Numbered from the stretch's first letter, positions 24,039-47,244 are shown. The stretch: 53,581 nucleotides of DNA from a virus (IMGVR_UViG_3300032223_002826:1-53581), one strand, 5' to 3'. Made by a program: numbers and translations. Notes: generated by a model from the sequence alone, not told the origin.

Positions 24039-24302
24039 TTACTCCTTTGTTAGCGCGTCTTTGATAAAGGCTGGATCGTTACGCGCGCCAACGATCCTTC
24101 CAATCTCTTTTCCACCAGCGTCAAGCATGACAACGGTCGGAACCGACCGAATGCCATACTCTTCAGCAAGTGGTCCTTGTTGATCTACATCCACCTTGAC
24201 GAGAGTGACTCCTGTCTCCTCTGCAACCTTGGTCAATACTGGACCGAAGACCTTACATGGGCTACACCAAGTGGCGGAGAAATACAACGCTCTCGCTGCC
24301 AT
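24039..24302 (-). CDS. trxA: thioredoxin
   Basis: FSATWCSPCK, KVDVD, YGIRSVPT; TAATG coupling to RNR. Confidence 0.93.
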   Translation of the reverse strand: MAARALYFSATWCSPCKVFGPVLTKVAEETGVTLVKVDVDQQGPLAEEYGIRSVPTVVMLDAGGKEIGRIVGARNDPAFIKDALTKE

Positions 24303-26569
24303 TAGCAGGCGCTCCATCCGCACGAGAGGCACTTCATGCACCCCTCTTCGCGAACAAGTGAAGTATTTCCGCACTCTGTGCACAGGTCAGCACTGACCTG
24401 CTTGGCTGGCTTTGGCGCAGCATCGACAGCCTCAACCGTTGCCCCGTCTTCCGACGACGCAAGGAGCGCCTCTCCAATCGCGTGCGGGATAGCCTTGGCG
24501 AACTTGCCAAACCCTCCGACACCGAGCAACTGGCTGCCCACCTGTTTCAGGGTCGCGCCCTGCTGCAGGCTAAGGCTGACCAGTCGCCCAAGTGCCTCCC
24601 CCAACTCCATTACATCGGAACCAGCCTTACCGATTGCAACGAAGACCTCAACAGGTCGCCCCTCATCGGAGTTCACTGTTAGGTACGCTGTGCCTGCATT
24701 GGTAGAGACCTTCGTTGTCTTACCATCAAGCACCGCAGGGCGCGTCCAAGACTTTGGAGCCGTAACCTCCGTAGGCTTCTTCGGCTCCTCCTTGTAGAGA
24801 ACTTGCGTTCGCCCACAACCGTCTCGGAAATATGCAACGCCCTTGAGACCAGAATCATATGCCAGCGTATATGCCTTCTCAACATCCTCAATGGTGTGGC
24901 TGTTTGGCGCATTGATCGTCTTGCTGACTGACGAGTCAATGTGCTTCTGAGCAGCAGCCTGCACTGCAATATGCTCCTCAACCGTCACATCGTTCGAAGT
25001 AACAAAGTATGGCGGGAATGGCTTGTCGCTATTGATCTCGCGCCAGTTATCTGCAGGAGGCGCATAAACCTTGTGCGTACCCGTGCGGTCAACTCGCGTA
25101 TACTCAAAGGCAAAATAGGGCTCGATGCCACTATTTACGCCTGCGAGGATCGAGGTCGTTCCCGTCGGAGCCTGCGTGAGCAAGAAGATGTTACGCAGTC
25201 CGCTCTCCACAATCTCGCGATGGATCTTATATGGTAGTTCGCTCAGGTATGGTCGCTGCAGCATATTGTTCTTCCATGCTGGAGCAGCACCCAGTTGACC
25301 AGCCAGTTTTGCCGACTTGGAAATCGCCTCAATCTTCATCAGTTGAAAAACGCGACTCGTAAAGGTCACAGCCTCAGATGAGCCATAGCGAATGCCAAGG
25401 GAAATCATGGCGTCAGCCAAGCCCATGACGCCAAGCCCGATTCGGCGCAGTTTCTTCTGAATGTCCTCATTGTCTGGAAGGAAGTAGTAGTTCTTGTCGA
25501 CCACCTTGTCGAGGAACTCCACTGCTGTGCCGATATCTTGCGAGAAGTTATTCCAGTCAAAGACTGAGCCCTCAGCGCTATGACGAACATATGCCGCAAG
25601 GTTCATCGCACCAAGGTTGCAGACAGAGTAGGCGCCAAGACCCTGCTCGCCGCACGGGTTCACGCAAATGATGCGCTCAACCGCTGCGCCAGTGGATTCC
25701 TTGTTGTAGCGGTCAAGGAAGACAATCCCCGGCTCGCCATTGTCCCATGCTGCCTCAGCAATCTTGCGCCAGATCTCACGCGCCTTGACAGTTGCATAGA
25801 CCTTGACGGGATAGCCGTTCGCACGCCACTTGGCAATATCGCCGTCCCACTCCTCATCATAGGCTGGGTGAGCCGTATCTGGGAAACAAAGATCCCACTT
25901 GCCGTCAGACTTGACCTGCGCCATGAAGTGGTCAGAGACCGCAACCGACACATTGGCGTTGGTGATCTTAGTCAGGTCGCGCTTTGCCTCAATGAAGTCG
26001 ATGACATTTGGGTGCCAGTCGTCAATCATGAACATGGCAGCACCACGGCGCGAACCGCCCTGCTCCACCTCACCGACCGCCTTCGACGCCACATCCATCC
26101 AGCCGATAGGACCAGACGAAGTACCATTGATGCGCTTCAGGTATGCACCCTTCGGACGAAGCACCGACCAGTTGATGCCGACACCACCGCCACGGGACAT
26201 AATGTCCACCATCACGCCGATAGTATCAAAGATCGCCTCGCGGCTATCGCGCCCCTTCTCGATTGTTACTTTATCGTTCTTGCGCGCCTCTCGATGGGAT
26301 CGCGTCTCGACAGGGATCACATAGCAGTTGTAGTAAGTAACTTCTGAGTTAGCGCCAGCGCCAGCAAGGATACGCCCACCAGGGACGAACTTAAAGTTCT
26401 CGAGGATGGCACGGAAGCGTGAGGACTGGAGGGAGTCTTCGCCGATCTCGGCAGCGACACGGTCCCACATTTCTTCAGGGGTCGACTCGACGGGCTGTCC
26501 GTCAGGACCCTTCTTGGCATAACGGTCGAGGAAGACCTTAGTTCGCTGGGCATTGAGTGAGACAGGCAT
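24302..26569 (-). CDS. nrdJ: class II (adenosylcobalamin-dependent) ribonucleotide reductase
   Basis: FVPGGRIL, NCYV, GGGVG, NPCGEQ, CNLG, APTGT, DSSVSKT, C-terminal CTECG..EEGCMKC..CGWSAC; no small subunit gene; AAAGGA RBS. Confidence 0.92.
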   Translation of the reverse strand: MPVSLNAQRTKVFLDRYAKKGPDGQPVESTPEEMWDRVAAEIGEDSLQSSRFRAILENFKFVPGGRILAGAGANSEVTYYNCYVIPVETRSHREARKNDKVTIEKGRDSREAIFDTIGVMVDIMSRGGGVGINWSVLRPKGAYLKRINGTSSGPIGWMDVASKAVGEVEQGGSRRGAAMFMIDDWHPNVIDFIEAKRDLTKITNANVSVAVSDHFMAQVKSDGKWDLCFPDTAHPAYDEEWDGDIAKWRANGYPVKVYATVKAREIWRKIAEAAWDNGEPGIVFLDRYNKESTGAAVERIICVNPCGEQGLGAYSVCNLGAMNLAAYVRHSAEGSVFDWNNFSQDIGTAVEFLDKVVDKNYYFLPDNEDIQKKLRRIGLGVMGLADAMISLGIRYGSSEAVTFTSRVFQLMKIEAISKSAKLAGQLGAAPAWKNNMLQRPYLSELPYKIHREIVESGLRNIFLLTQAPTGTTSILAGVNSGIEPYFAFEYTRVDRTGTHKVYAPPADNWREINSDKPFPPYFVTSNDVTVEEHIAVQAAAQKHIDSSVSKTINAPNSHTIEDVEKAYTLAYDSGLKGVAYFRDGCGRTQVLYKEEPKKPTEVTAPKSWTRPAVLDGKTTKVSTNAGTAYLTVNSDEGRPVEVFVAIGKAGSDVMELGEALGRLVSLSLQQGATLKQVGSQLLGVGGFGKFAKAIPHAIGEALLASSEDGATVEAVDAAPKPAKQVSADLCTECGNTSLVREEGCMKCLSCGWSAC

Positions 26570-26699
26570 CTGTGCTGGTTCCTTTCTGCTATAGGGGTTT
26601 TGAGTGGATAGGTAGTATATACGCTCTTTTTCATATCTCCAAATCCTGCCGGGCGAAGAGACTGATCTAAAATGATCCATTATCACGCATAATGCCTTG

Positions 26700-27005
26700 T
26701 ACGCTCTATACCCCTATACCAGTATAGTATATATAATATATATAACATAGTATAGGTATTAGTATGTATAACGCGTATAGCGCTTATATCCTTTATCTCC
26801 TTATCCCTACCTATCACCCTTATCCTCTTATTGCTATTAGAAGGGCTCATATGCTTAGTAGTACTTAGACACTATAAGCCAATAAACGCCTCTCCTAGGG
26901 CTTCCTAGGGGCTTCTGAGGGCATTATAACCCTAGGTCGTAAATACAAAAATAATACAAAAATAATCAATATCCCCTCGACTTTTAAAACGACATGTATT
27001 TTGTT
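26700..27005. other. AT-rich tract, candidate origin unwinding element
   Basis: TA runs, repeated TTATC(C/T) and AATACAAAAAT x2; sits between divergent transcription units next to the motif array. Confidence 0.45.
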
Positions 27006-28169
27006 TAGTCACCAGCGCACTAATAAATGGGGTGGTTTGGAGCCCCCCAAAGGGGGGCTAACCAAGCACGAAGGGATCACGGCTTACCTACGCCGACCCT
27101 TACAACGCGTGCAGGAGCGCGCGCTAAATACCATGACGCGCACGAAGGCAGGTGCGCGCGGAGCGAGCACGGTAGTTTTACGCGTGCGGTAATCGCGCAG
27201 GAAACTACGCGCCTAGGTAGGCGCCTCAAGGTATCCCGAAGGGATACAAACCGCGCGAGCGTAGCGCCTAGGGGTGCATGCGGGAATACCTTGTCGCGCG
27301 CTCAAGGCGTGCGACTTACCTTGTCGCGCACGCGAGGGTACGCGTGGTTTACCTCGTCGCGGGTAGGGGCGCATGGGGTTCCTTGTCGCGCGCGCAGGCA
27401 TGGGGTTTCCTCGTCGCGGGTAGGGGCGCGTTTCCTTGTCGCGGGCGTAGGGGTAGGCGCCTTGCGCGCGGTCAAGGATAAATAACACGCGCACGGAAAA
27501 CGGCGCCCGTTGTCGCGCAGGGTTTTTACGCCTAGGCGCGCAGGGATTCTTTGACGCGGGCGTAGGCGCCTAGGCACGCGCGAAAAGGAAATCAGGCGGG
27601 CGTGGTTCATTGACGCGGGCGCGTACACCCCCGCAGGCGCGGCAAGGAAAAACACGCGCGCAGGGTTCTTTGACGCGCGTATGGGCGTAGGCGCGCGCGG
27701 AGAATAGTAAACACGCGCGTAGGCGCCCAGCGCGCGGAAATGGATAAATAACACGCGTACATGCGCACGCGTAGAAAACCCTGCGCGGTTGATCTGCGCG
27801 GGGTTTTACGCCTAGGCGCGCGGCAAGGAAGTTGCCCGCACGGGATTCCTTGGCACGCGTGCGGGTATGCGCCTATGCGCGGCAAGGAAAACATGCGCCC
27901 GTGCGGTTCATTGACGCGCCCACGGGCATGCACGCGCACGCGTAGAAGGAAAACCGCAGGCGCAGGAAAACCGCGCAGGATTGATCTGCGCGTGGTTTTT
28001 ACACGCAGGCGCGTGATTTTCATTTCTGCGCGTGCAGGGGTAGGCATGCGCGCGCGTCAAGGAAAACCTGCGGGCGTGTATGCCTAGGGGCGCGTCAATG
28101 AATCCTGCAGGGGCATGGAGACCGCAGGGAGCAACGCCCGCAGTCTCCGTGCGCCGCGCGAAGGCAAAA

Positions 28170-28216
28170 CAACCCCCTAAAGGGGGTTGACAAACCAAAA
28201 TCCGCCGTGGGATGCT
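28170..28216 (+). promoter_or_regulatory. sigma70-type promoter with hairpin overlapping -35
   Basis: CAACCCCC-TAAA-GGGGGTTG, TTGACA 28187, 18 nt, TGn-GATGCT. Confidence 0.65.
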
Positions 28217-28276
28217 TGCAAAAGCAACGCCGATGACGGCGGAGCACAAGTCCCCCGAAGGGGGAAGGAGGGCAAC

Positions 28277-28549
28277 ATGACCGAAGCGAAGATGAGCACT
28301 AAGACCCTACGGGTCTTTTTCGGCTCGGCAAGCGATGACGGCGACCTGAACGAGACCGAAGGTCTCGCGGAGCGGCTTGCCGCTCGGATCGGCTTCTCCG
28401 AAGCCTATGAGACCTCTTGGGTTGATGGATCTCCGAAGGAGATCATGAGCAATGCTCGGTATCGTGAAGCCATCGCCGTGCTCTTTACTGGCGATGGCTT
28501 CGGCTTGTGCTTGATCCCCGAAGCCGTCGTCATGGCTCGCCTAGCCTGA
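28277..28549 (+). CDS. early hypothetical protein (90 aa)
   Basis: AGGAGG RBS, own promoter and terminator. Confidence 0.8.
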   Translation: MTEAKMSTKTLRVFFGSASDDGDLNETEGLAERLAARIGFSEAYETSWVDGSPKEIMSNARYREAIAVLFTGDGFGLCLIPEAVVMARLA

Positions 28550-28566
28550 TCCCCTTCGGGGATCCG

Positions 28567-28601
28567 CCCCCTGATCCCTTCGGGGATCAGGGGGTTTTTT
28601 T
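28567..28601 (+). terminator. intrinsic terminator
   Basis: CCCCTGATCCC-TTCG-GGGATCAGGGG then TTTTTTT. Confidence 0.9.
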
Positions 28602-29573
28602 ATTCCCTTCGGGAATAAAACACGCGCGTATACGCGCCTCAAGGATAGTTATCCTTGAGGCGCCCGCAGGCACATATACGCACGCGCCTCAAGGAATATA
28701 TATTCCTTGCCGCGTAGCGCGGGCGCTTTTCATTGCCGCGCAGCGGGCGCGCTTTTCATTGTCGCGGGCGCATACACGCGCCCCTGCACGCGTAAAAAAG
28801 AACACCCGTGCTTAGGCGGATCTGAAGACTTTCACTTTAGTGAAAGTCTTCTTTACGCACCTGACTGACTACCAGCGACGCGGCTAGGCTAAACCTTCGC
28901 GCGGAGATCAAACGCGCGAGGTTTTTACGCGTGTTTTTCCTTGTCGCGCGCAGAGGCACCGAAGCAGGCGCGAAGACTGAAATCCGCACCCTAAAAACGG
29001 CGCGGGACTAAGTCGCACAGGGTTTTGTGAAGCCATCCGAAGCGCTGCCAATGCCGACGGCGTGGTTTTGGATTCCCCTTAGGGGAATCTCCGAAGCGGT
29101 CGGCAAGGGCTGCTAAAACCCCCTGAAAGGGGGTTTTCCGACACGCTAAGCGGTGTTTGGGCTTTGGGTAGGGTTCTCCCCTTCGGGGAGAAAAAACCGC
29201 GTTTATGCTCGCTTTTCATTGTCGCGCGCTCAACGCGCCCGCGCACGCGGATAAATGAACCGCGCTCCAAAAACAGCGCGCAGTAAACGGCGCCCAGTTT
29301 TTGAGTAGCCACGCGGAAATCAACTAACGCGCGCAGGTGTATACGCGCGCACGCGCGTAAAAGGAAATAACGCGCGCTACTTAGACGCGCCAGCGAACAC
29401 ACCTAGCGACGCGCCCGTGCACATATATACGCATGTACGCGCGCGCCTAACGCGCGAGCGCAGGGCTACGGCTCGTAAAACTCCGCAGAGTTTTACAGCG
29501 CGCAGGGCTGAAGAGAGCAAAATCCTACGGATTTTGCGACTTCGCAACGCAGGCACGCGCGCGAGTATCCGAC

Positions 29574-29701
29574 CGCTTTTTCTTTGCGAAGAAAAAGCGA
29601 CTTCATCGCTATACCCTAAAGGGTATAGCGATGTCATCCCTTTACTCCAAGAGGAGTAAAGGGATGTTTTCTATTCTCGTGGCAATCGTAGATTGCCACG
29701 A
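29574..29701. repeat. four tandem perfect inverted repeats
   Basis: CGCTTTTTCTT/AAGAAAAAGCG; CATCGCTATACCC/GGGTATAGCGATG; CATCCCTTTACTCC/GGAGTAAAGGGATG; TCGTGGCAATC-GTA-GATTGCCACGA. Confidence 0.9.
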
Positions 29702-29906
29702 TAATAGGGATTTGCGGCGATTTGAGGCTGCCGACCCCCCTTTTTGGGCTGCCATGGCTCCCCCTTTTCCAAACGAGCCTATCCCTCGTTCTTTTACTTC
29801 GGTGTAAACACCTCGTAAAATAACTTCGGTCTAGGCTCGTTTGCGTGCGCGCTCGGGGGCGCAAAAGTTTTGCGCGCCTCATGATGCGCAAGCGCGTAGC
29901 GCGTAA

Positions 29907-29977
29907 GTGTGTGCGCGTGTACATGTGCGCGTATACGCGTATACATGTGCGCGTATATGTGTACATATGCGCGCGTG
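29907..29977. repeat. 71-bp perfect alternating purine-pyrimidine tract
   Basis: GTGTGTGCGCGTGTACATGTGCGCGTATACGCG...ATATGCGCGCGTG without a break. Confidence 0.9.
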
Positions 29978-30135
29978 GAAAGGCTGAATATTTTTCGTAG
30001 AAAAATATTTTATATGTGCATAATGCGAAGGGACGCCATGATGTGAGCAGCGTTCAGAATCTCTTTTTTCAGTAAGAAAAAGAGATTTTACTACGCGCGT
30101 ATTTATACGCATGCGACGCATACGCGCATCACACG

Positions 30136-30217
30136 GCGTGTCAATACTAAATACCTTCGGTATTTACCCTTACTTCGTAAGGGTCGTATTGACACGCGAG
30201 GAAGGCTCTGGGATTGT
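30136..30217 (+). promoter_or_regulatory. T-shaped palindromic element A plus promoter (TTGACA 30189, 17 nt, TGn-GATTGT)
   Basis: 12-bp outer arms enclosing two 19-nt triloop hairpins. Confidence 0.8.
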
Positions 30218-30265
30218 TGTTGAGGAAGCGGCGCCAAATCGCCGCATCGGATCGGAGGTCTCGCA

Positions 30266-30643
30266 ATGGCTAGGACAGCACGAACACTCGTCAAGCAGCA
30301 CACTCTGGTTGCAACCACATATGAGGCAGCGGTTCTCGCCGCAACTATTGCCCCCTACGGGGCAAATGCGATTGCCCTTGACACTGATGGGGTAATCGCC
30401 GCAGTAGTCTATAAGACTACTTGCGGTTGGCAGATTGAGCGTTCCGCCGATTGCCCTTGGGCAATCCGTGGTCTTGTGATGCAGTTTACTGCATCACATA
30501 TGCTCATGAAGGATGCGATTCGCCGCCTTCGCCAGATTCAGCGCCTCGCCGTTGCAGATCCTAATGAGGATCTGCATGAGTACGAGGAGGATGAGACCAA
30601 TACCTATAAGGTATTGTGCAACAAGTGCAACCAGTATGCCTGA
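30266..30643 (+). CDS. early hypothetical protein with C-terminal Cys/His motif
   Basis: GGAGG RBS; 125 aa. Confidence 0.75.
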   Translation: MARTARTLVKQHTLVATTYEAAVLAATIAPYGANAIALDTDGVIAAVVYKTTCGWQIERSADCPWAIRGLVMQFTASHMLMKDAIRRLRQIQRLAVADPNEDLHEYEEDETNTYKVLCNKCNQYA

Positions 30644-30707
30644 TCCCTTTGGGATCAGATACAATCGCCCCTCCCCTTCGGGGGAGGGGCAAGCAGGAGG
30701 TGTAAAC

Positions 30708-31085
30708 ATGGCGGAATCCCTTCGGGATTATGTTCTTGCAAACGGCGGTGCAACTATTCTCCTTGAGAATAGTTCGCCATACACTGCAGAAAACGGCTAC
30801 GCCGTTGGCGTTGCGACTGGCACATACTTTCGGGTACCAGTTGCTACAGCAACTGCAGAGCAACTTGGAGCGCTTGTGAATAATATCAAGGATATTATTC
30901 ATCTAGGCGGCACGATTCTTGACGAAGCCAACGCAGTTGGCTTTTGGGTGAATGATGGATGGATCCACATTGACCCAGTGCAGATCGTCCCTTCGGGACG
31001 AGACGCCATCAACCTAGGGTATGAGCGAAAGCAGGAAGCGATCTATGACTTCCGTAGGAAGTCAGAAATCTTCTTGCCCCGCTAA
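30708..31085 (+). CDS. early hypothetical protein
   Basis: AGGAGG RBS, start MAESLRDY; GFW..DG.I.ID...A...G..RKQEAIYD. Confidence 0.8.
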   Translation: MAESLRDYVLANGGATILLENSSPYTAENGYAVGVATGTYFRVPVATATAEQLGALVNNIKDIIHLGGTILDEANAVGFWVNDGWIHIDPVQIVPSGRDAINLGYERKQEAIYDFRRKSEIFLPR

Positions 31086-31105
31086 TCCCAAAGGGATTAC
31101 CAAAG

Positions 31106-31129
31106 CCCCGCCCTCTTCGGAGGGCGGGG
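31106..31129 (+). terminator. UUCG hairpin at operon end
   Basis: CCCCGCCCTC-TTCG-GAGGGCGGGG; no U-tract. Confidence 0.5.
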
Positions 31130-31353
31130 TGAGCACATATATGTAGAGGTGTGTGCATACACCTAGCCGTATGCACACACTCCTGCAGATATGCAGGCGC
31201 ACACACATACACGCGTGCGGGCGCGCACGCACGCACACACGCGTACATACGCGCGTAAAAACCTCTCCAAAAAAACAAAGTTTTTTTAGTAGGGGCAGTG
31301 CTAGTAGCGACGCGGATCGGAAGCAATCCCTAAAGGGATTGGGAAGGAGAAAC

Positions 31354-31644
31354 ATGCAGAAAAACGATCACAGTCAGGTAGGTTATACGCAGGAGCAAAT
31401 CAATAAGTTCATGGAAATGCATACCCTTGTCGTAGACAAGGAAGCGATGCAGGCTCTTCGTGATGAAGTCAAATGGCTTCGTGAGGTGATCGCCAATCTC
31501 CGTAAGGAGATTGATAACCTCCAAGCAGAGAAGTTGCCTATGGCAACTTGTGCCGCTTGCCACGAAGACTTTCCACATAACAAAGTTATGTGGGTCGCCA
31601 ATCGCTACGAATGCGAATGGTGCTACGAGCGCTTGTCCATATGA
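31354..31644 (+). CDS. coiled-coil plus zinc-finger protein
   Basis: AAGGAG RBS; heptad stretch; CAAC...CEWC. Confidence 0.75.
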   Translation: MQKNDHSQVGYTQEQINKFMEMHTLVVDKEAMQALRDEVKWLREVIANLRKEIDNLQAEKLPMATCAACHEDFPHNKVMWVANRYECEWCYERLSI

Positions 31645-31651
31645 GCGCACA

Positions 31652-31732
31652 CTTGTCAAGACTAAAACCCTACGGGTTTTACCTATACGAAGTATAGGTC
31701 GTCTTGACAAGCGGGAAGGGTTGCCGTACCTT
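31652..31732 (+). promoter_or_regulatory. T-shaped palindromic element B plus promoter (TTGACA 31704, 17 nt, TACCTT)
   Basis: 11-bp outer arms enclosing two 19-nt triloop hairpins. Confidence 0.8.
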
Positions 31733-31802
31733 GGAAATCGTCAAGCCGCCGACGGCAAACGGCGGAGATCGGTAAGTGCCCTAAAGGGCAAGGAGGTCGC
31801 TC

Positions 31803-32297
31803 ATGTCGCTCAACTGGAATGTTGCAAAGGTAGCAGACGGAGTCTGCTGGGAGCCTAAGTTTGACAGCAAGGGCAACCCCGTCATCGGAGATGACGGCAA
31901 GCAGGTTGAGACTATGCGTTGGGAAACGGATGCGCTCATCTGGCAGACGATGATAATCGGGCTCAACAACATTACCGAAGGTAATGTGGATGAATGGGTC
32001 TACCGATTGTCGCTTCTCGCGGTGTTGGACAACGGAGTTGGGACTCGCTTTGTTGATGACAAATGGGTTCGGACTTATCTGACGGAGTCAGATGTTCGCC
32101 GCCACATTGGGCTCTATACGAATGCGACGCAGCAAACTCGTAAAGAGTTTGAGAAGCGATTCCTTGAGTGGGTTCACGAAAGGGGTATCGGCACCCTTCG
32201 GGATGCCGAAGAGGATCAGGCAGACTTTGAGCAGCGCCACACCTATGTCGTAGACAAGGGATGGTACTCGGTTGAGAAGTTGGCGGAAGCAATCTAG
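31803..32297 (+). CDS. early hypothetical protein
   Basis: AGGAGG RBS; 164 aa. Confidence 0.8.
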   Translation: MSLNWNVAKVADGVCWEPKFDSKGNPVIGDDGKQVETMRWETDALIWQTMIIGLNNITEGNVDEWVYRLSLLAVLDNGVGTRFVDDKWVRTYLTESDVRRHIGLYTNATQQTRKEFEKRFLEWVHERGIGTLRDAEEDQADFEQRHTYVVDKGWYSVEKLAEAI

Positions 32298-32327
32298 CAA
32301 TGCCCCTTCGGGGCAAGGAGGTACAAC

Positions 32328-32882
32328 ATGACGGACACTGAAGTTCTACACCCTGAAGGGTGTAAGGTAGACGGCGCAACTTGTATCTCATGCAATGAGC
32401 ATGAGTGCGACACCTCTAGCACGGATTGGCAGTATGCCAATCGTCAAGAAGGTTGGCTCTGCTACTCCTGCTATTGCTCCGACACTGAACATGGTTCAGT
32501 GATCACGACGATTGAGCAGGACGGGACGGAGTCCCGTACGCTTATCGGGGATTATGTGGCGATGGACGCGGAGTTTGGCGACTTCGTGAATAGCGAGAAT
32601 GTGGTTCGCGAATACCATCGTACCGATGGTTGGCGAGGACACTACTGCACAACCCTAAAGGGTTGGACGGAAGTTGAGGATGGCGTTGCCCTTGCTGGCA
32701 TGCCGACTCCTGCTACTGATCTTGCAAGCAAGATCAAGGATGCACAAGAGGAGGGTTTCTTGCCTTGCAAGATTGCCATCATCTCCGATCCTACGAGCAA
32801 TGTGTTCTCGGTTGGCGTGTCCTTCTTCGTAGAAGAAGGCAATGAGGAAGTGTTTACCCAATGGGTAAAGGAGGTTGCATGA
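32328..32882 (+). CDS. early hypothetical protein with Cys-rich N-terminus
   Basis: AGGAGG RBS; CISC...CYSC. Confidence 0.8.
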   Translation: MTDTEVLHPEGCKVDGATCISCNEHECDTSSTDWQYANRQEGWLCYSCYCSDTEHGSVITTIEQDGTESRTLIGDYVAMDAEFGDFVNSENVVREYHRTDGWRGHYCTTLKGWTEVEDGVALAGMPTPATDLASKIKDAQEEGFLPCKIAIISDPTSNVFSVGVSFFVEEGNEEVFTQWVKEVA

Positions 32883-33094
32883 GCAAGGTTTTGTGCCATC
32901 GTTGCAATAAAACGATCCGTAAGGATCGTGTCTTCATGCTGTTGTTCACCCCATTCCATAAGGAATGTGCCATGATCTTCGGCGGGATGATGATTATGGC
33001 AACTCCCGATCCTATAGATCGGGATATTCTTACCCGTATTGTGTACGGCGACAAAGTCGCCGACAACATCAAAAACAAGGAGGTGCAAGCATGA
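32879..33094 (+). CDS. small zinc-binding protein
   Basis: ATGA coupling; CHRC...HKEC. Confidence 0.7.
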   Translation: MSKVLCHRCNKTIRKDRVFMLLFTPFHKECAMIFGGMMIMATPDPIDRDILTRIVYGDKVADNIKNKEVQA

Positions 33095-33354
33095 ATCGGA
33101 TCGCTATCATCATTCTGATGATTATGGCTGCTTTTGTTGGGTTCTTTTTGCCGCCATCAGCCGCCGTTGAGACGCTTCTCAACGGCGAACACTTCCGACA
33201 AAACTACCCTGATGGTAGTTTTATGGTTGGTGTTATCTACTACGACGAAGTCGTAGGGGATCGTTGCGCAATGGGAACAATGCACACCGCTGATGGCAAG
33301 GTTTACAACCTTGACAAGTGGTGCGGCGATGACCTACTCCCCGTTGGGGAGTAG
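33091..33354 (+). CDS. small membrane-anchored or secreted protein
   Basis: AGGAGG RBS; hydrophobic N-terminus MNRIAIIILMIMAAFVGFFL. Confidence 0.7.
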   Translation: MNRIAIIILMIMAAFVGFFLPPSAAVETLLNGEHFRQNYPDGSFMVGVIYYDEVVGDRCAMGTMHTADGKVYNLDKWCGDDLLPVGE

Positions 33355-33557
33355 CGCTTTGCTCACACCCCTGCCCTCTATGTGAGGGTAGGAGCGTGTG
33401 CAATCGCACATGGTGTATGTATATGCATACGCACATATACACATGGGCGCGCGTATACGCACGCGCTCGCTCGCGCACATATACGCGCGGGAAAAAGTTG
33501 GAAAACCAACTAGCATGACGGCATAGGTTAGCGACGCGTAAGAAAAGCGACGCAGCC

Positions 33558-33605
33558 CAATCCCCCTAAAGGGGGTTGACAACCAGTTTTTTGAGATGCT
33601 ATCAT
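33558..33605 (+). promoter_or_regulatory. sigma70-type promoter with hairpin at -35
   Basis: CCCCC-TAAA-GGGGG, TTGACA 33576, 18 nt, TGn-TATCAT. Confidence 0.85.
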
Positions 33606-33651
33606 GTATATAGGCGAGGGAAGTCCCCTTGGCAGATCGGGAGGTGCAAAC

Positions 33652-34074
33652 ATGAAGGTTCTGAAGGTATCGCTAAGCAACGAGGATGTTGCAGGCATTA
33701 TTCATACCGCCGTTGAGGGTGGTACGAACTACTGGGGCGAAGTGCGCGGCTACAAGTGGACGACTTGGTATGAACCAGACCCCGAAAAGTCGTACGACGA
33801 CGAGTATGGATCGTACAAGGCGGAGCGTGTCAAGGGTCTCCCCAAAGACTTTGTCTTTGTTGAGATTCGCGAGGATGAGGATCTTACTGATCCTGAACGC
33901 AAACCGAATACTTGGTTCCCTCTTACAAGGGAAGCGATTGAGCGAGGAGTTTGCATGGTTCTTGAGAACCATGGGCACCTTATCAACATTCGGGATGGCG
34001 AGATTGACACTGATGCCTACGGCGCCGATGCCATCGTTCAGATGGCAGTGTTCGGTGAACTCGTCTATGGGTGA
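33652..34074 (+). CDS. early hypothetical protein
   Basis: GGAGG RBS; EGGTNYW and DA..ADAIVQ.AVFGELVYG. Confidence 0.8.
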   Translation: MKVLKVSLSNEDVAGIIHTAVEGGTNYWGEVRGYKWTTWYEPDPEKSYDDEYGSYKAERVKGLPKDFVFVEIREDEDLTDPERKPNTWFPLTREAIERGVCMVLENHGHLINIRDGEIDTDAYGADAIVQMAVFGELVYG

Positions 34075-34243
34075 GCGATGGGAGCAGCGAGCGGCGGCGC
34101 GAGATGCCAAGCGCCGTCGCCGCAACAATCCGATGGACACCTTCTATCAGAAGGTATGGCACGATATTGATCGGCTACGAGCCGATCGCAACAAGGAGGT
34201 GCGACATGATCGTAAGGGCACACGCTCGTCAACGACTCGCTGA
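34067..34243 (+). CDS. possible small Arg-rich protein
   Basis: fills the gap between two genes; weak RBS. Confidence 0.35.
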   Translation: MGERWEQRAAARDAKRRRRNNPMDTFYQKVWHDIDRLRADRNKEVRHDRKGTRSSTTR

Positions 34244-34514
34244 GCGTCTATCTGCTGCAGAGCAGCAGCAGGCTATCAGTCATGCTGCTCAGATCGCCCC
34301 TTCCGTAAGGAAGGGAGATGGAGTGGCAGCCGTGCTTCTCCGACTGGAGAAGCGACGCAACAATGGCAAGCGCTCCGTTTCTAACGGAGACATGGTTGTC
34401 GGCATCATTCGGGATGGCGAACTTATCACCATCATGATGCGCCGCGCTAGTCAGGTATTGGACGCAGCGACGCTACGCGTTCAGCAAGTGGTTGATGCAA
34501 CATTGGCGGCATGA
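34206..34514 (+). CDS. HAxxRxxER-motif protein (possible RelE/DUF4258-like fold)
   Basis: AGGAGG RBS; HARQRLAER...VVGIIRDGELITIM. Confidence 0.6.
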   Translation: MIVRAHARQRLAERLSAAEQQQAISHAAQIAPSVRKGDGVAAVLLRLEKRRNNGKRSVSNGDMVVGIIRDGELITIMMRRASQVLDAATLRVQQVVDATLAA

Positions 34515-34518
34515 AAAC

Positions 34519-34567
34519 CAATCCCCCACAAGGGGGGTTGACAAGCCGAAAAACGGCAGGTTATCAT
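34519..34567 (+). promoter_or_regulatory. sigma70-type promoter with hairpin at -35
   Basis: TTGACA 34538, 18 nt, TATCAT 34562. Confidence 0.85.
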
Positions 34568-34573
34568 GTATAT

Positions 34574-34890
34574 ACACGAGACGGCTTCATCGGCTGTCTC
34601 GGATCGGCTCGGTACCAACAGGTTCCTAGGACTGCTGTTGGACTGAGCACGGGGTGAGATTGGACGAGCGAGCGATCCGCAGCCCTAAGTGCGGAAGAGA
34701 GGCATGGCAGAGCGATGGCAACTAGGACAGACGCTGTAAGTCTGGGAGTTGTAGGTGGTTCGGTTGTAGCCGACGGGCATGACAACCGAGCAGCCAACGA
34801 GCGGCGTATCGCTACCGACGGGTGGCGATGCGTTGCTCGGATCGTGGCGGAAGGGTGCATACGAAAGTTCAGCCCCTTCCGCCACCATTG
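34574..34890 (+). ncRNA. candidate structured non-coding RNA or long leader
   Basis: directly after a promoter; at least six helices with many G-U pairs; the first strong RBS is at 34907. Confidence 0.65.
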
Positions 34891-34918
34891 TTTGGAAAAC
34901 AAAAGTAGGAGGTGCAAC

Positions 34919-35197
34919 ATGGGGTACGCAACGGCAATCGGCATAGCCGATAGTGGATTGGATTTGGATGTTCAGTTGCAGTGGCATTTCACGAGCAACT
35001 GCTACCCGCCTATTCCGCTCGGAATGATTGAGCCAGCAAAGGCAGCCATTGCGCTTGCGCAAAGTGGCGAGTCGGACAAGATGGTAGCGATGCCAGAAGG
35101 CGTTGAGCACCGAAAGTATGGGACGCAGGTTCCTGCATGGGTGCTCATTCATTCGCTGCACTTGGAAGCATTCGCAGACGCAAGCGAGGAGGAGTAA
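34919..35197 (+). CDS. early hypothetical protein
   Basis: AGGAGGTGCAAC-ATG. Confidence 0.8.
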   Translation: MGYATAIGIADSGLDLDVQLQWHFTSNCYPPIPLGMIEPAKAAIALAQSGESDKMVAMPEGVEHRKYGTQVPAWVLIHSLHLEAFADASEEE

Positions 35198-35199
35198 GC

Positions 35200-35469
35200 A
35201 TGTATAAGCATATTGGTTGCAACAGGAACATTGGCGTTGGCTTGACAGCCAAAGCGATTGTCAACCTAACGACAACCTCATATGACAAGGAAAAGTTCTG
35301 GCTTGAAGAGCCAGAAGGCATGAGCGAAGATCTCGTAGAGATCATTGGTATTTATTGCTATGAGTGCAACGAAACAATCAAGGAGATTGAACCCGTTGAC
35401 CTTCAGACCTTTGAGAGCGAGATGTCCATTGGCGCGCATAACGATGTGCTAACATGGGACGCCGACTAG
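35200..35469 (+). CDS. hypothetical protein
   Basis: GGAGGAG RBS; HIGC...CYEC. Confidence 0.7.
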   Translation: MYKHIGCNRNIGVGLTAKAIVNLTTTSYDKEKFWLEEPEGMSEDLVEIIGIYCYECNETIKEIEPVDLQTFESEMSIGAHNDVLTWDAD

Positions 35470-35481
35470 TCGGCGTTTTGC

Positions 35482-35510
35482 TTGACAAGGTTTTTGGCAG
35501 ACTGTATCAT
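35482..35510 (+). promoter_or_regulatory. sigma70-type promoter
   Basis: TTGACA, 17 nt, TATCAT; preceded by GCCGACTAGTCGGC palindrome. Confidence 0.85.
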
Positions 35511-35554
35511 ATAGGTATGCGAGGGACAATCTCTCGCCAAGTAGGAGGTGCAAC

Positions 35555-35911
35555 ATGGATCGGAAGAATGGTCGCTATCGGGTTGGTAGCGTTGGAGTTG
35601 ATGCAGGTATGGTCATGGTCGGAGACCCTTGCTACCTAGACAAGTTCACAGATCACGACTTTGACGACGCAAAGGTAGAGGCGCAAAAGGCGAATGGCAA
35701 GTACGAATACTCGTACAGCGGCGCTTGCGCCGCAACGCTATCGGACAATAGCGCAGGTGAGTTGGGTAATGCTGATGCCGTTGCGGTAAGCAGTGGGTAC
35801 GGCGACGGGGTTTACCCCGTCTTCGCAACTTACAATCATGATGGTCGTATCGTCAAGTTGGAAGTCATCTTTGATGGCGACCATGGCGACGAAGACAGCG
35901 ACGAAAAGTAA
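35555..35911 (+). CDS. DUF4241-like protein
   Basis: VGVDAG.VMVGDPCY and VSSGYGDGVYPV. Confidence 0.7.
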   Translation: MDRKNGRYRVGSVGVDAGMVMVGDPCYLDKFTDHDFDDAKVEAQKANGKYEYSYSGACAATLSDNSAGELGNADAVAVSSGYGDGVYPVFATYNHDGRIVKLEVIFDGDHGDEDSDEK

Positions 35912-35925
35912 GCAGGAGGTGCAAC

Positions 35926-36249
35926 ATGGCTAACCCAGAAGACGCAGACTACACGCCGTGCCAGAAGTGCGGCAATGAGTGGGCTGAAACACTCCATCAG
36001 GAGTGTGGCATCGTTTGTGAAGAGTGCTACAACGCATGGAAGGAGCCAGACATGGGAACAACCTATAGGGTTGTGCGAATGTACTTTGAGGATCACCCTC
36101 GCAAGGTGATTGTTGCTGGCAAGACGCTGGAGGAGGTTCAGCGCTGGTGCAGCGACCCAGACACGAGCAGCAGCACGACAACGAGCGAAGCAGGAAAAGC
36201 CCATACTGAAAAGTATGGGGCATGGTTTGACGGATACGAGGAGGAATAG
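35926..36249 (+). CDS. hypothetical protein with N-terminal zinc finger
   Basis: AGGAGG RBS; CQKC..CEEC; TLEEVQRWC.DP.TSS. Confidence 0.75.
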   Translation: MANPEDADYTPCQKCGNEWAETLHQECGIVCEECYNAWKEPDMGTTYRVVRMYFEDHPRKVIVAGKTLEEVQRWCSDPDTSSSTTTSEAGKAHTEKYGAWFDGYEEE

Positions 36250-36251
36250 GA

Positions 36252-36542
36252 ATGTCGGCGGATATCAATCAAAAACGCTTCCTTGTGAAGTATCACACAA
36301 TGGTTGTCAAGCATCTGCTCGTTTGGGCGGATGACGAAAGCGATGCAGAGGGGCGCCTCATGACCACGGATTCGGAGTTGTTTTTCTCCCCTTCTGGGGA
36401 GGAAGATCTTCGTGCCCTTGGCATTGAGGTGCTCGGCGACGAACCCGCTGGTCATGGGTACGCAGAAGCGATATCCCTTGGCGAGGTTGACGAAAAAAAG
36501 TCAGTTGACAGCAATACGATTGTGGTCAAGGAGGGCGAGTGA
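36252..36542 (+). CDS. hypothetical protein
   Basis: operonic 96-aa ORF. Confidence 0.65.
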   Translation: MSADINQKRFLVKYHTMVVKHLLVWADDESDAEGRLMTTDSELFFSPSGEEDLRALGIEVLGDEPAGHGYAEAISLGEVDEKKSVDSNTIVVKEGE

Positions 36543-36787
36543 ACAGGCTCACATTGGACGGACAGAACAGCGTGCAGGTCATGGGCTTCACAGCCCATGA
36601 TGTGCAGGAACTTGCATACGAGGCAGGCTATGAGATCAGCCGCGAAGAAGCGAACGCGTTTCTTGCGCAGCATTCCATAAAGTTTCGCAACAAGATGGTG
36701 GAGTTCGGCAACGAACTCCTTGAGCAGATGATGTTTGGCGGCGAGCCGAACGATTTGACAGCAGCAAAGCAGGCTGCTAATATGTAG
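36539..36787 (+). CDS. hypothetical protein
   Basis: GTGA coupling, AGGAGG RBS. Confidence 0.7.
   Translation: MNRLTLDGQNSVQVMGFTAHDVQELAYEAGYEISREEANAFLAQHSIKFRNKMVEFGNELLEQMMFGGEPNDLTAAKQAANM
36755..36783 (+). promoter_or_regulatory. sigma70-type promoter
   Basis: TTGACA, 17 nt, TGn-TAATAT. Confidence 0.75.
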
Positions 36788-36826
36788 GTATCATGCATTT
36801 GCATGAGTAAGCATAGGAGGTGTGTT

Positions 36827-37300
36827 ATGGCAGGCGAATGGAAGAATATCCACGATGAGTCGCCACGGGGCGATATTACGATTTCGGTGCTTGCGACAAC
36901 CGTGGATGAGGATGAGTCGGACTACTGGTCAAACAACTACAATGTGTTGTTTGAGCGCAACTATCAGGGGATTGTATACTCGTACCATCTTACGATGGAG
37001 GATGCAATCAAGAACGAGCGCCCAGTGTTTGAGCAGTGCTATTACTATGACCTCTGGCTCTACGAGGGAGAGCCTTCGGCTAACATCGGCAGCAATCGCA
37101 ACAAGTATCTTGATGCGATTCATAAGTGCGGTGTTGAAGATGGCAACCCTAAGTCCTACGGACTTATCTCGCACGATTGCAAGGATTGCGCCTTGGCAAT
37201 CTGGTGGGAAGAGTACCAAGACGGCAATGCATCCTATGAGGATGCAGAAAAGTATATGGACGAGCATAAGTATGCTCTTCTCAAGGAGGTGCAATCATGA
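36827..37300 (+). CDS. acidic Tyr-rich hypothetical protein
   Basis: AGGAGG RBS, start MAGEWKN. Confidence 0.75.
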   Translation: MAGEWKNIHDESPRGDITISVLATTVDEDESDYWSNNYNVLFERNYQGIVYSYHLTMEDAIKNERPVFEQCYYYDLWLYEGEPSANIGSNRNKYLDAIHKCGVEDGNPKSYGLISHDCKDCALAIWWEEYQDGNASYEDAEKYMDEHKYALLKEVQS

Positions 37301-37554
37301 CGATCCTAACGAACGAACAGGTTCAGCGACGGTCTGAGCAGTTAGCGCTCGGCTTTGCGCTCACGGATTGGGGAGACCTAACCTATGAGCAGGCAATCAG
37401 CGCATTGGAAGCCGCAGGCAATGACAGTTTTGCGTTTCCCGATCCGATTGTGCCATGGGAGGCATTTGAGCATTGGAGCCCGCAATCGGTAGCCAACGAG
37501 ATTGATGGCATGCGAGCCGCAATCTATCTGGCTTTCAGCCAAGAAGAGGCGTAG
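37297..37554 (+). CDS. acidic hypothetical protein
   Basis: ATGA coupling, AGGAGG RBS. Confidence 0.75.
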   Translation: MTILTNEQVQRRSEQLALGFALTDWGDLTYEQAISALEAAGNDSFAFPDPIVPWEAFEHWSPQSVANEIDGMRAAIYLAFSQEEA

Positions 37555-37555
37555 C

Positions 37556-37729
37556 ATGAGTGGCAAGAAAACTGAGTGGGCGGAGCAACCAGATGAGCCG
37601 CGATGTCCGAACAACACGCGACATGGCGAACTTGTGCCGCACGAAAAGGGCGGATATGTTTGCCGCGATTGTGAGTCTGCCCACACCAAGCGCTCTCGTG
37701 TAGCGTATCGCTTCTCCGTGCCTAGGTAG
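37556..37729 (+). CDS. small zinc-ribbon protein
   Basis: CP....H...YVCRDC. Confidence 0.55.
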   Translation: MSGKKTEWAEQPDEPRCPNNTRHGELVPHEKGGYVCRDCESAHTKRSRVAYRFSVPR

Positions 37730-37872
37730 GCACTCGCCCCCTCGCGGGGGCGGATCGCGTGGTGCGCGGGCACTTCCCGCACCACGCATAACGCATGCAC
37801 TCGCGCGCGTTATATTTCTTCAATCAAACGCCTCCGCTGCAAAAGTAGCGACGCGGTGTTTTGCCATGCGGT

Positions 37873-37902
37873 TTGACAGGGTTGGAGTTGGGGTGCTAAT
37901 AT
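37873..37902 (+). promoter_or_regulatory. sigma70-type promoter of ardC
   Basis: TTGACA, 18 nt, TGn-TAATAT. Confidence 0.8.
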
Positions 37903-37945
37903 GTATGAGTAGGTGCTTACCTACGCAAGAGAAGGAGGTGCTCAG

Positions 37946-38818
37946 ATGAGCAACAAGGTTTACGAGGTGATCGCCGAAAGCATCACCAATGCACTGGACA
38001 AAGGCGTCGTGCCATGGCGCAAGCCGTGGAACGCGGAGCAGATGACGCCACGCAACATGAAGGGCGTGCCGTATCGTGGCATCAATGTGTGGTTGCTCAT
38101 GCTGCAGGGTCATGGTAGCCCGTATTGGGCAACCTACAAGCAGGTCAACGAGGCTGGCGGCACGATTGTGGCAGGCGCAGAAGGTACGCCTATTGTGTTC
38201 TGGTCGCGCTACGAGGTTGAAGACGAGAATGCAGGCGGCGAAAAAACCGTCAAGAGCATCCCTGTGATTCGCTACTACAAGGTGTTCAATCAGTCGCAGA
38301 TCAAGGGCATTGAGTTCCCTCCGCTGCCTACGGTAGGCAAGAGCGAGTTCTCGCCGATTGAGGCTGCAGAGCGTGTGATTTCATCTATGCCAAAGCGCCC
38401 AGACATTAGCGATAATGGTGGAGCCAAGGCGTATTATGTCCCCTCGCAGGATAGTATTCACATGCCAAGCAAGGATACCTTTGAGAGCGCAAATGGGTAT
38501 TATGCGACGCTCTTCCACGAGATGGCGCATAGCACTGGGCATTCGTCTCGCCTCGCTCGCAAGAGCGTTGATGAAGCGGCGCCATTCGGTAGCGACATCT
38601 ACGCTCAGGAAGAGTTGATTGCTGAGTTTGCTTCGGCGTTCCTCTGCGGAGAGACTGGCATCTCGCCGTCGGTGATTGAGAACGCTGCAGCATATATTGC
38701 TGGCTGGAAGCGAGCGATCAAGGACGACACCCGTGCCGTGATCTCCGCAGCAAGCAAGGCGCAGAAGGCGGCTGACTACATCCTCGGACGGGAGGATGCA
38801 GTTGCCAAGGCAGCGTAG
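37946..38818 (+). CDS. ardC: ArdC-family antirestriction / ssDNA-binding zincin protein
   Basis: GVVPWRKPW, YRGIN..LL, WATYKQ, VFN..Q, AYY.P..D.I.MP, TLFHEMAHSTGH, YA.EELIAE, AAYIAGW. Confidence 0.93.
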   Translation: MSNKVYEVIAESITNALDKGVVPWRKPWNAEQMTPRNMKGVPYRGINVWLLMLQGHGSPYWATYKQVNEAGGTIVAGAEGTPIVFWSRYEVEDENAGGEKTVKSIPVIRYYKVFNQSQIKGIEFPPLPTVGKSEFSPIEAAERVISSMPKRPDISDNGGAKAYYVPSQDSIHMPSKDTFESANGYYATLFHEMAHSTGHSSRLARKSVDEAAPFGSDIYAQEELIAEFASAFLCGETGISPSVIENAAAYIAGWKRAIKDDTRAVISAASKAQKAADYILGREDAVAKAA

Positions 38819-38963
38819 TCGCTGCAACACATGCTTCCGTCCGAGCGAAGGCTCGGAGTGCAGGAAGTGCAAAGGCAAGCGAGAGGCGGCGGAGATTGTC
38901 CGTCGCCTCATCGCAGAGTTAGAGAAGGAGATTCAGGATGGCAAACAGCGAGTTCAAGATTGA
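38796..38963 (+). CDS. small zinc-finger protein (55 aa, below the ORF-track cutoff)
   Basis: MQLPRQRSRCNTCFRPSEGSECRKCK...; start uncertain (alternative TTG 38802). Confidence 0.5.
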   Translation: MQLPRQRSRCNTCFRPSEGSECRKCKGKREAAEIVRRLIAELEKEIQDGKQRVQD

Positions 38964-39237
38964 GGATTTCATGAACGCAGTCGCAGAGGTTATGGGGTTC
39001 GGCAGCGCGTGGAGTAAGGACATTGACGGCACAATCGTGGAAGAGAATATCTTCTTCCATGGGGCTGAGGTATCCGATGATAATGGTCGCGTACATGTGC
39101 AGTTTGCGCTTTCATATCCAAGCCGAGAGCATTCGGAGGCTGGTCTTGCACTGCTCTTGACGGCAGGCGAGGCTCGTCAGTTCGCCAAGGTTTTCACCGT
39201 AGCGGCAGACCTGCTTGACGCGCAGGAAGGTATCTAG
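38938..39237 (+). CDS. hypothetical protein
   Basis: AAGGAG RBS; 99 aa. Confidence 0.7.
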   Translation: MANSEFKIEDFMNAVAEVMGFGSAWSKDIDGTIVEENIFFHGAEVSDDNGRVHVQFALSYPSREHSEAGLALLLTAGEARQFAKVFTVAADLLDAQEGI

Positions 39238-39243
39238 TACACT
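39215..39243 (+). promoter_or_regulatory. promoter of recombinase
   Basis: TTGACG, 17 nt, TACACT. Confidence 0.65.
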
Positions 39244-39307
39244 CGGGGGCAACCCCGATCGGGTGAGTCTGAGTGGCTCACAAAACGGGTATATAGGAGG
39301 GTGCAAC

Positions 39308-40186: not shown

Positions 40187-40188
40187 GT

Positions 40189-40226
40189 AAAGGGGCTGAG
40201 CCGCTTGGTGGCTCAGCCCCTTTTTT
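40189..40226. terminator. bidirectional intrinsic terminator
   Basis: AAAGGGGCTGAGCC...GGCTCAGCCCCTTTTTT between convergent genes. Confidence 0.9.
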
Positions 40227-40227: not shown

Positions 40228-40716
40228 TTACTTGCGCTTTCGCGCTAACTGCTGTTGCTTCGTGTACGCTTTTATTTCAACATCTTGCTGGGGCTGTTCG
40301 CCCTCAATGTCGAGCAAGCGACGCTCTGCTTCAAGCAGTTCGCGATGGCGCTCCTCCGTGATGATGTGGAGATAAGGAATCAGTTTGCCATTTACATGTG
40401 TCGGCGATGCATTCGTCGGCTCAATGCGAATCAGCGGCTTCTTCCCGTTCTGAAAGGACACCTCATTGATGAGGATCCACCACTTCCACAACTTCGCAGG
40501 AACGATTACTTGCTTTGATTCACCAGCATAGGTTCGGCTCAGCGTATCAAAACGCAGAGCGGTAATGTGACCCACGCGCCCAGTACTGCTGACAGTCCCC
40601 ATCCCCGGACGCATCCGAGGATCGGGACCATCATAGGCGAGTAGCCATTTGCCCATTCGCCGCTCCGCGTCCTTTGATCGGCGCAACCTGCGCTTGATCT
40701 CGGACGCCTCGCTCAT
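40228..40716 (-). CDS. PD-(D/E)xK-like nuclease, possible Holliday junction resolvase
   Basis: AER..., FD.L....AGESK pattern; replication operon. Confidence 0.5.
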   Translation of the reverse strand: MSEASEIKRRLRRSKDAERRMGKWLLAYDGPDPRMRPGMGTVSSTGRVGHITALRFDTLSRTYAGESKQVIVPAKLWKWWILINEVSFQNGKKPLIRIEPTNASPTHVNGKLIPYLHIITEERHRELLEAERRLLDIEGEQPQQDVEIKAYTKQQQLARKRK

Positions 40717-41489: not shown

Positions 41490-41493
41490 CACT

Positions 41494-42070: not shown

Positions 42071-42072
42071 AT

Positions 42073-43113: not shown

Positions 43114-43156
43114 TGTTTACCCCCAATATGTTGTGTTGTTGACATCAATAACAATA

Positions 43157-45491: not shown

Positions 45492-45492
45492 A

Positions 45493-47225: not shown

Positions 47226-47244
47226 GAAACCCATCCTAGGGGGC

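Follow-up and report, generated by a model that had tools for sequence, protein, structure and literature searches.

A dense array of short perfect palindromes covering the early operons of a siphovirus-type genome and possibly kept as DNA hairpins

The viral record IMGVR_UViG_3300032223_002826 is a complete, siphovirus-type genome of 53,581 bases, and the whole of it is referred to here as the window. It was found that about 100 short perfect palindromes, each different from the others, cover the first-expressed genes of this virus, protein-coding sequence included. As read from the sequence, the hairpins that these palindromes can form obey the DNA mini-hairpin rule d(C-GNA-G), on either strand. 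It is tentatively proposed, at a little under even confidence, that the array is selected or maintained as hairpin or cruciform structure of the DNA in the early operons; its function is something that we infer.

Hairpins were defined as perfect stems of at least 7 bp with loops of 2-5 nucleotides (nt), and the null expectation was taken from 100 dinucleotide-preserving shuffles. Between 27041 and 34543, 82 such hairpins were found, against 1.83 ± 1.40 (maximum 5) in the shuffled sequences. With loops of exactly 3 nt the corresponding figures were 48 and 0.37 ± 0.56. The observed counts exceed dinucleotide shuffles 45- to 130-fold and, within genes, codon shuffles that preserve the protein 14-fold. 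A preliminary description, made from the sequence alone, had reported about 30 inverted repeats in this region; every hairpin it named was recovered to within 1 nt (Table 1), and the total proved to be an undercount. The density in the array core was 16-24 hairpins per kb, compared with 0-8 per kb elsewhere in the window. The fading of the array beyond about 34.5 kb, also described earlier, is real but gradual, since the interval 34544-38000 was still moderately enriched (13 hairpins vs 0.51 in shuffles). The rest of the window was at or near the shuffle level, with 17 vs 5.5 hairpins in 1-26000 and 12 vs 2.7 in 40500-53581.

The codon-preserving control gave the same picture within the reading frames. 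The ten early genes of the core contain 50 hairpins, whereas 200 synonymous shuffles that kept protein and codon usage gave 3.65 ± 1.84 (maximum 10). Shuffling of whole codons lowered the expectation to 0.74. The synonymous null is five times the whole-codon null, indicating that the amino-acid sequences themselves are shaped to permit palindromes. Hairpins take up 26% of the coding nucleotides of the ten genes, and the codon phase of the loops is weakly biased (16:8:6). At least two of the ten, 30708-31085 and 33652-34074, belong to real protein families. The former has 178 relatives at E ≤ 0.001 in a HMMER search. Its family motifs are intact in the alignment, and palindromes overlie the conserved NGYAV, VGFW and YDF; for instance, AACGGC-TAC-GCCGTT encodes the conserved NGYAV.

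The loops follow a clear grammar. Among 54 triloops the closing pair, read 5' to 3', was C-G in 44, T-A in 7, A-T in 2 and G-C in 1. The loop itself was GNA in 19 of the 54 and its complement TNC in 16, together 35 of 54 compared with 12.5% by chance. Orientation was nearly symmetric, with 20 cGNAg and 16 cTNCg hairpins at stems of at least 4 bp. Loop and closing pair are conserved among the hairpins and the arms are not. The stems are strictly Watson-Crick, and pairing continues beyond a single mismatch in four hairpins only. The first pair outside the stem, scored in 107 hairpins, was G.T in 14 and A.C in 18, showing that there is no wobble extension on the sense strand. In RNA folding, both strands gained about 10 kcal per 120 nt over other regions of this genome, and the sense-minus-antisense difference was -1.7 to -2.4 kcal per 120 nt, compared with -5.3 to -6.3 kcal in ordinary genes on the + strand. 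The cGNAg rule put forward in the preliminary description is upheld in both orientations.

A smaller group of hairpins behaves differently. In the array region the sense-to-complement counts were 3:0 for TTCG loops, 3:0 for GTAA loops and 6:0 for CCCTAAAGGG (0.04 expected), which agrees with the earlier contrast between DNA-type and RNA-type loops. These hairpins sit after stop codons, shortly before ribosome sites, or abutting -35 boxes, and they look like ordinary RNA or transcription signals. Sense-specific RNA elements were found for this subset and not for the intragenic triloop majority.

The array is accompanied by alternating purine-pyrimidine runs. Scanning of 27041-34600 revealed 21 runs of at least 12 nt, located in 27751-34578 and totalling 454 nt, the four longest being 71, 37, 33 and 31 nt. 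Shuffled sequences gave 3.1 runs and 41 nt in total, with a longest run of 21 nt. All 21 runs are intergenic, and none overlaps the ten genes. Their place is the stretch from a terminator-like hairpin to the promoter or gene start that follows it. Such tracts, rich in CG and CA/TG steps, are classic Z-DNA-prone sequence. The tracts qualify as Z-DNA-forming on their base sequence, the left-handed form being a prediction, and they would add to the supercoil reading of the preliminary description. Two compound palindromes were also found, in which an outer stem of 11-12 bp, containing TTGACA, encloses two triloop hairpins. On either strand, their predicted DNA folds reached z values of -6.7 to -8.3. 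A gene starts 70-90 nt downstream of each, and weak -10-like hexamers occur 17 nt past the TTGACA.

The window was compared with a strain fragment (L003; 94-98% identity), the overlap of which ends at 29633. Over the 1.09 kb shared, 11 hairpins are identical. Loop flips were observed at 28648 (GT to AC) and 29080 (T to A), and one substitution creates a palindrome in L003. The gene 28277-28549 is replaced in L003 (1089-1355) by a homologue of about 30% amino-acid identity, between flanks that are 94-98% identical. The joint of this allelic replacement, 28270 to 28544, is present also in runs X2 and X3. The replaced segment is flanked by the hairpins 28251 and 28548, which may serve as exchange junctions. 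Sequencing runs were further compared through contigs. Among 40 listed of 437 differences, 33844 A>G and 33858 T>C stand opposite each other in a single stem pair and are present together in four of four runs. In the same list, 33891 T>C, seen in one run, disrupts a stem pair, and 33927 A>G makes a stem longer. Within 33747-34078, 4 of 31 listed differences fall in stems, which make up 21% of the positions, a sample too small to speak of selection.

A second array was found when 175 other loci were fetched in three sets, by a ribonucleotide reductase (RNR) query, by ArdC and by a terminator pattern. Of the loci retrieved with the RNR query, 8 viral and 37 from metagenomes, L003 alone was close and the others were without the array. 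Among 118 ArdC loci (65 viral, 53 genomic), a comparable array was present in one, L084 (IMGVR_UViG_3300007734_000463). The palindromes of another locus, L055, were rejected as a comparable array, being repeated AT-rich operators. The terminator pattern retrieved 12 high-GC contigs that are related by that hairpin only and are without arrays. L084 is an unrelated viral contig with a GC content of 0.44 and an array at 8266-9445. Its interval 8201-9500 holds 15 perfect hairpins, compared with 0.24 in shuffles, and the remaining 12.6 kb holds one. The array starts directly after a divergent promoter region, covers the leader and the first genes of the + strand, and lies upstream of an ArdC-like gene. 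The first gene, 8681-9112, encodes a very acidic protein.

Taken together, the rule on loops and closing pairs, the symmetry between strands, the lack of wobble, the contrast with RNA-type loops, the loop flips and the Z-DNA-prone tracts suggest that it is as DNA that most of the palindromes arise or are retained. The interpretation of the preliminary description, selection for DNA secondary structure, is thereby partly supported. Formation of the hairpins in DNA, whether in a single strand or in supercoiled duplex, is a matter of predicted folds. In the proposed mechanism, hairpins or small cruciforms would form under strong negative supercoiling or during transient single-strandedness, and intrastrand copy-back or arm-to-arm correction would keep the palindromes perfect. 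Hairpins and Z-DNA-prone spacer tracts together could turn the early region into a block of supercoil-responsive non-B DNA. The function that we would prefer is torsional buffering or sensing during early transcription. Within gene bodies, extruded hairpins would store negative turns, cancelling positive supercoils ahead of RNA polymerase, and Z-tracts behind promoters would absorb negative supercoils. RNA copies of the hairpins would inevitably fold as well. By a rough estimate, a palindrome of 19-25 bp releases about 12-15 kcal/mol at a superhelical density (sigma) of -0.05, which is near the cost of a small cruciform. On similarly rough figures, a 53.5-kb circle has roughly 255 superhelical turns, most of which could be taken up by about 100 hairpins and 454 nt of Z-prone DNA.

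Several observations weigh against selection as DNA structure. With 6-11 bp, the stems stand at the bottom of the length range in which extrusion occurs. The stems show no GC enrichment (0.54 vs 0.53 for the region), and hairpin spacing is no more regular than random (coefficient of variation 0.61 vs 0.67). The array is limited to the rightward early transcription units and absent from the adjoining leftward genes, a confinement that a purely DNA-level role does not predict. Three palindromes are imperfect in L003, and the L003 allele of gene 28277-28549 holds two hairpins, at other positions, compared with five here, which shows that single hairpins can be dispensed with. The loops of L084 have a sense bias (13 cGNAg vs 3 cTNCg), long purine-pyrimidine tracts are missing there, and 7 of the 10 gaa loops (stem of at least 4 bp) of gene 8681-9112 are in-frame GAA codons. 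Finally, a hairpin ends 12-21 nt 5' of the ATG in 7 of the 10 early genes. The windows from Shine-Dalgarno (SD) sequence to ATG hold three hairpin nucleotides or fewer in all ten, whereas only 38% of random 20-nt windows are hairpin-free. The clear SD-ATG windows and the placement of the hairpins indicate that RNA folding is at least a constraint on palindrome position.

The strongest rival explanation takes the early mRNA as the selected object. Its hairpins would guard against single-strand RNases, 3' exonucleases, Rho, R-loops and RNA-guided defence (type III/VI CRISPR), and the palindromes would be perfect only as young products of DNA template switching. This combined account is possible, and we consider it less likely than selection at the DNA level. 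It draws on the hairpin placement before SD sequences and the clear SD-ATG windows, on the sense-only TTCG, GTAA and CCCTAAAGGG loops (12:0 in all) and on the sense bias of L084. It also fits the restriction of the array to early operons of the + strand, starting at a hairpin-TTGACA unit at 28170-28192 for which the promoter scan gave no -10 partner. Fast turnover between alleles could explain the missing G.U pairs. Against it, triloops dominate (52 of 107) and follow the DNA rule in both orientations, whereas those hairpins that are obliged to work in RNA, the terminators, use UUCG tetraloops. G.U pairs are neither used nor employed to extend stems, the excess folding energy is strand-symmetric, and the Z-DNA-prone tracts occupy spacers that look untranscribed.

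In a further account, which we regard as improbable, the palindromes are functionless mutational by-products. Chance C-GNA-G nuclei would fold in exposed strands, be perfected by copy-back and accumulate in early genes that evolve fast under weak constraint. Perfect Watson-Crick stems of ordinary composition would be expected on this account, as would the occurrence of both orientations. The loop flips, the single changes by which close strains gain or lose palindromes and the differing hairpin positions in homologous alleles agree with it too. However, density is equally high in coding and non-coding DNA, and the palindromes persist over conserved protein motifs. The bending of amino-acid sequences seen in the two nulls (3.65 vs 0.74) implies a price not expected under drift alone. 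The sharp limit to one set of operons would need a region-specific exposure that is itself unexplained, and the same design arose independently in L084.

It is very improbable that the palindromes are operators for dimeric DNA-binding proteins: palindromy itself and the repeated motifs nearby (CCCTAAAGGG six times, TTGWCGCG 12 times, AGCGACGC 10 times) suit such sites, but the roughly 100 stems are all different, and conservation of loop and closing pair instead of arms is the opposite of an operator. Least probable of all, to the point of being negligible, are promoters of the N4 type, read by a phage virion RNA polymerase, even though a stem of 5-11 bp with a 3-nt GNA loop resembles N4 P1-P3 (PMC4496689). 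The longest open reading frame (ORF) in the window has 966 amino acids (aa), and those above 750 aa match tail, tape-measure, RNR and ferritin-domain families. The hairpins, about 100 of unrelated sequence, lack a conserved flank (-17 to +1), are mostly intragenic and occur in both orientations, and sigma70-type promoters are present. A search of the record with PF00940 gave no match, its controls being likewise silent. As a family assignment, N4-type promoters were excluded on the lack of a giant polymerase ORF and of a conserved promoter sequence, the intragenic copies and the sigma70-type promoters. The analogy with N4 drawn in the preliminary description holds as hairpin chemistry and mechanism and fails as regards promoters. 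RNase III sites were rejected as the stems are too short, and repeats resembling repetitive extragenic palindromes (REP) or bacterial interspersed mosaic elements (BIME) were rejected as the stems have no common sequence.

N4 nevertheless offers the closest mechanistic parallel for hairpins extruded from phage DNA. In N4, gyrase-driven supercoiling extrudes the P1-P3 hairpins, the single-stranded DNA-binding protein (SSB) stabilises them and the virion RNA polymerase reads them. These hairpins combine a stem of 5-7 bp with a 3-nt loop that holds a sheared G:A pair, and they extrude as cruciforms at a superhelical density of -0.035 with Mg2+ (PMC4496689). When such a hairpin was placed between the -35 and -10 boxes of the E. 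coli rrnB promoter, activity was abolished, and the gyrase inhibitor novobiocin restored it (PMC4496689). The present array shares with N4 the short stem, the 3-nt loop with sheared G:A chemistry, the C-G closure and the location in a phage early region. It differs in that N4 has three conserved promoters and a polymerase of about 3500 aa (mini-vRNAP domain 1106 aa), whereas here some 100 unrelated stems lie mainly within genes, in both orientations, alongside sigma70-type early promoters.

Mini-hairpins bind SSB poorly and resist nucleases, according to the Hirao review (PMC13037366). The same review places d(GCGAAGC)/d(GCGAAAGC) mini-hairpins at the G4 complementary-strand origin and at RSF1010 ssiA, where the single strand stays folded and free of SSB. 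Loop and closing-pair chemistry are the same as here, in natural phage or plasmid DNA. However, those are single origin sites of single-stranded replicons, whereas the present array counts about 100 members in a double-stranded phage with no evidence of priming. Perfect inverted repeats of up to 284 bp have been described in protein genes of Nematomorpha mitochondria (2019; PMC6649704). As in that case, inverted repeats lie within functional genes and both arms encode real, partly conserved protein sequence. Long arms, of tens to hundreds of bp, were not found here; the stems have 6-14 bp, with mini-hairpin loop grammar, in phage early operons and with Z-DNA-prone spacers.

The promoter-early stem-loop (PeSL) cassettes of T4-type phages are repeated, conserved and intergenic. 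They share with the present array hairpins just 5' of the ribosome sites of small early genes and gene-sized replacement bounded by hairpins, whereas the bulk of the present hairpins is unique and intragenic. A full-text literature search, with subscription-only papers outside its reach, found neither dense coding palindromes nor mini-hairpin arrays described for the early regions of phages.

Searches for relatives of the early region were mostly negative. A blastn search of 27001-35000 against 50,697 phage records gave no match, and the proteins 31803-32297, 33652-34074 and P0002 matched no viral contig. A promoter pattern search for relatives returned no matches and a homologous-protein search only the query itself. 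In the alignment, the 30708-31085 family had diverged too far for loci to be scanned with it. At E ≤ 0.001, neither Pfam nor PHROGs assigned a function to 14 of the 18 ORFs of the early region, and the protein atlas held no match above 0.9 for the two largest early proteins. Rfam returned only sub-threshold low-complexity matches, on CA/TG tracts.

The ends of the record overlap by 82 nt within the tail-fibre gene, which indicates a circular assembly. Among the leftward structural genes are those for tail fibre, tape measure, portal and terminase. A 775-aa protein (16106-18433), encoded on the - strand between the genes for portal and major head protein, carries a ferritin/Dps-like domain (PF00210, 3.4e-9; phrog_3636 'DNA binding protein'), which is unusual in a head module. 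The genome also codes for DnaB, a DnaG-type primase, a beta-clamp, nucleases and a tyrosine recombinase. A rightward block of about 30 small genes, at approximately 28.2-40.2 kb, is terminated by an ArdC-type anti-restriction gene and a recombinase. Five near-consensus sigma70-type promoters (33576, 34538, 35482, 36755 and 37873; TTGACA, a spacer of 17-18 nt, TATCAT or TAATAT) were found, every one on the + strand, which indicates that the rightward block is the early block and is read by the host polymerase.

Two repeated motifs accompany the array (Table 1). TTG(T/A)CGCG occurs 22 times in the window vs 4.2 expected. Its co-oriented copies occupy a CG-rich stretch, gene-free save for the small gene 28277-28549, that lies to the left of the array start and inside it, and they could be iterons, operators or decoy -35 boxes. 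AGCGACGC, a candidate regulator site, occurs 12 times in the window vs 2.5 expected, with several copies 25-70 nt upstream of -35 boxes. A separate observation in the same region concerns word usage. CTGCG is wholly missing from the + strand over 28069-38643 (10.5 kb), and 4 copies were observed in 28170-40200 where about 19 are expected. Its complement CGCAG occurs 23 times in 28170-37600, which points to a strand-asymmetric avoidance of this word.

Table 1. Positions in the window of the palindrome array, its genes and associated features
Feature	Position	Strand	Details
Dense array core (leader, spacers, ten genes)	28170..34543		107 perfect hairpins (stem 6-14, loop 2-6), 52 of 107 with a 3-nt loop
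Thinning array tail over the next early operons	34544..37300		9 in-gene hairpins vs 1.57 in synonymous shuffles
Triloop-type hairpins	27231, 28251, 28301, 28351, 28428, 28548, 28598, 29174, 29517, 29677, 29987, 30715, 30985, 31046, 32301		named in the preliminary description, confirmed
AAA/TAAA-loop hairpins	27041, 28170, 29604, 31083, 31324, 31777, 32650, 33562		as above
TTCG hairpins	28567, 30667, 31106		as above
First small early gene	28277..28549	+	90 aa; 5 hairpins
Early gene	30266..30643	+	125 aa; 6 hairpins of stem at least 7
Early gene, real family	30708..31085	+	125 aa; phrog_17808, E 1.5e-8
Seven further hairpin-bearing early genes	31354..34514	+	31354-31644, 31803-32297, 32328-32882, 32879-33094, 33091-33354, 33652-34074, 34206-34514
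Early gene (one of these seven)	33652-34074	+	phrog_2355
Intrinsic terminator	28567..28594	+	12-bp stem, TTCG loop, T-run
Similar TTCG hairpins	30667-30690; 31106-31129		without T-run
Hairpin abutting TTGACA	28170-28189		no -10 partner in promoter scan
CCCCCTAAAGGGGG hairpin abutting sigma70-type promoter	33562..33605	+	TTGACA-18-TATCAT
Same hairpin-promoter layout	34523-34567		
Longest purine-pyrimidine tract	29907..29977		71 nt
Other Z-DNA-prone tracts	29416-29446; 31197-31257; 33413-33489		
Y-shaped compound palindrome	30136..30197		12-bp outer stem (3' arm with TTGACA) around two triloop hairpins
Second Y-shaped palindrome	31652-31712		same architecture, other inner stems
TTG(T/A)CGCG boxes, 12 co-oriented	27291..29226	+	plus 2 inverted at 28053 and 28091
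AGCGACGC, 10 copies in the early block	28874, 29405, 31306, 33530, 33546, 34351, 34466, 37847, 39854, 40317	+	
RNR	24302-26686		
DUF4241 match	35555-35911		early-region ORF
ArdC-type anti-restriction gene	37946..38818	+	distal end of early operons; PF08401 ArdcN 2e-30; PF18818 2.4e-37; phrog_7245

If the array is indeed selected or maintained as DNA structure, it would represent a large natural second code on viral genes, written in structure, with about a quarter of the coding nucleotides of the ten genes in hairpins and the proteins visibly bent to fit. The in vivo extrusion known for N4 would be extended from three promoters to a whole early region, and supercoiling of the DNA would be tied, in a concrete and testable way, to how a phage infection starts. 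A wider proposal, which we hold as possible but unlikely on present evidence, is that some phages overwrite their first-expressed operons with extrudable mini-hairpins, here together with Z-DNA, to make a supercoil-storing and supercoil-sensing domain that recurs in unrelated phages. As part of that proposal, such a domain would control the first minutes of infection, either by acting on when or how fast early genes are transcribed or by shielding exposed single strands, and the arrays would form a class of structural DNA code over protein genes that has not been described before. If selection acts on the mRNA instead, the array would amount to a passive armouring of early transcripts by structure. 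On either reading, the feature recurs in L084, an unrelated uncultured phage contig.

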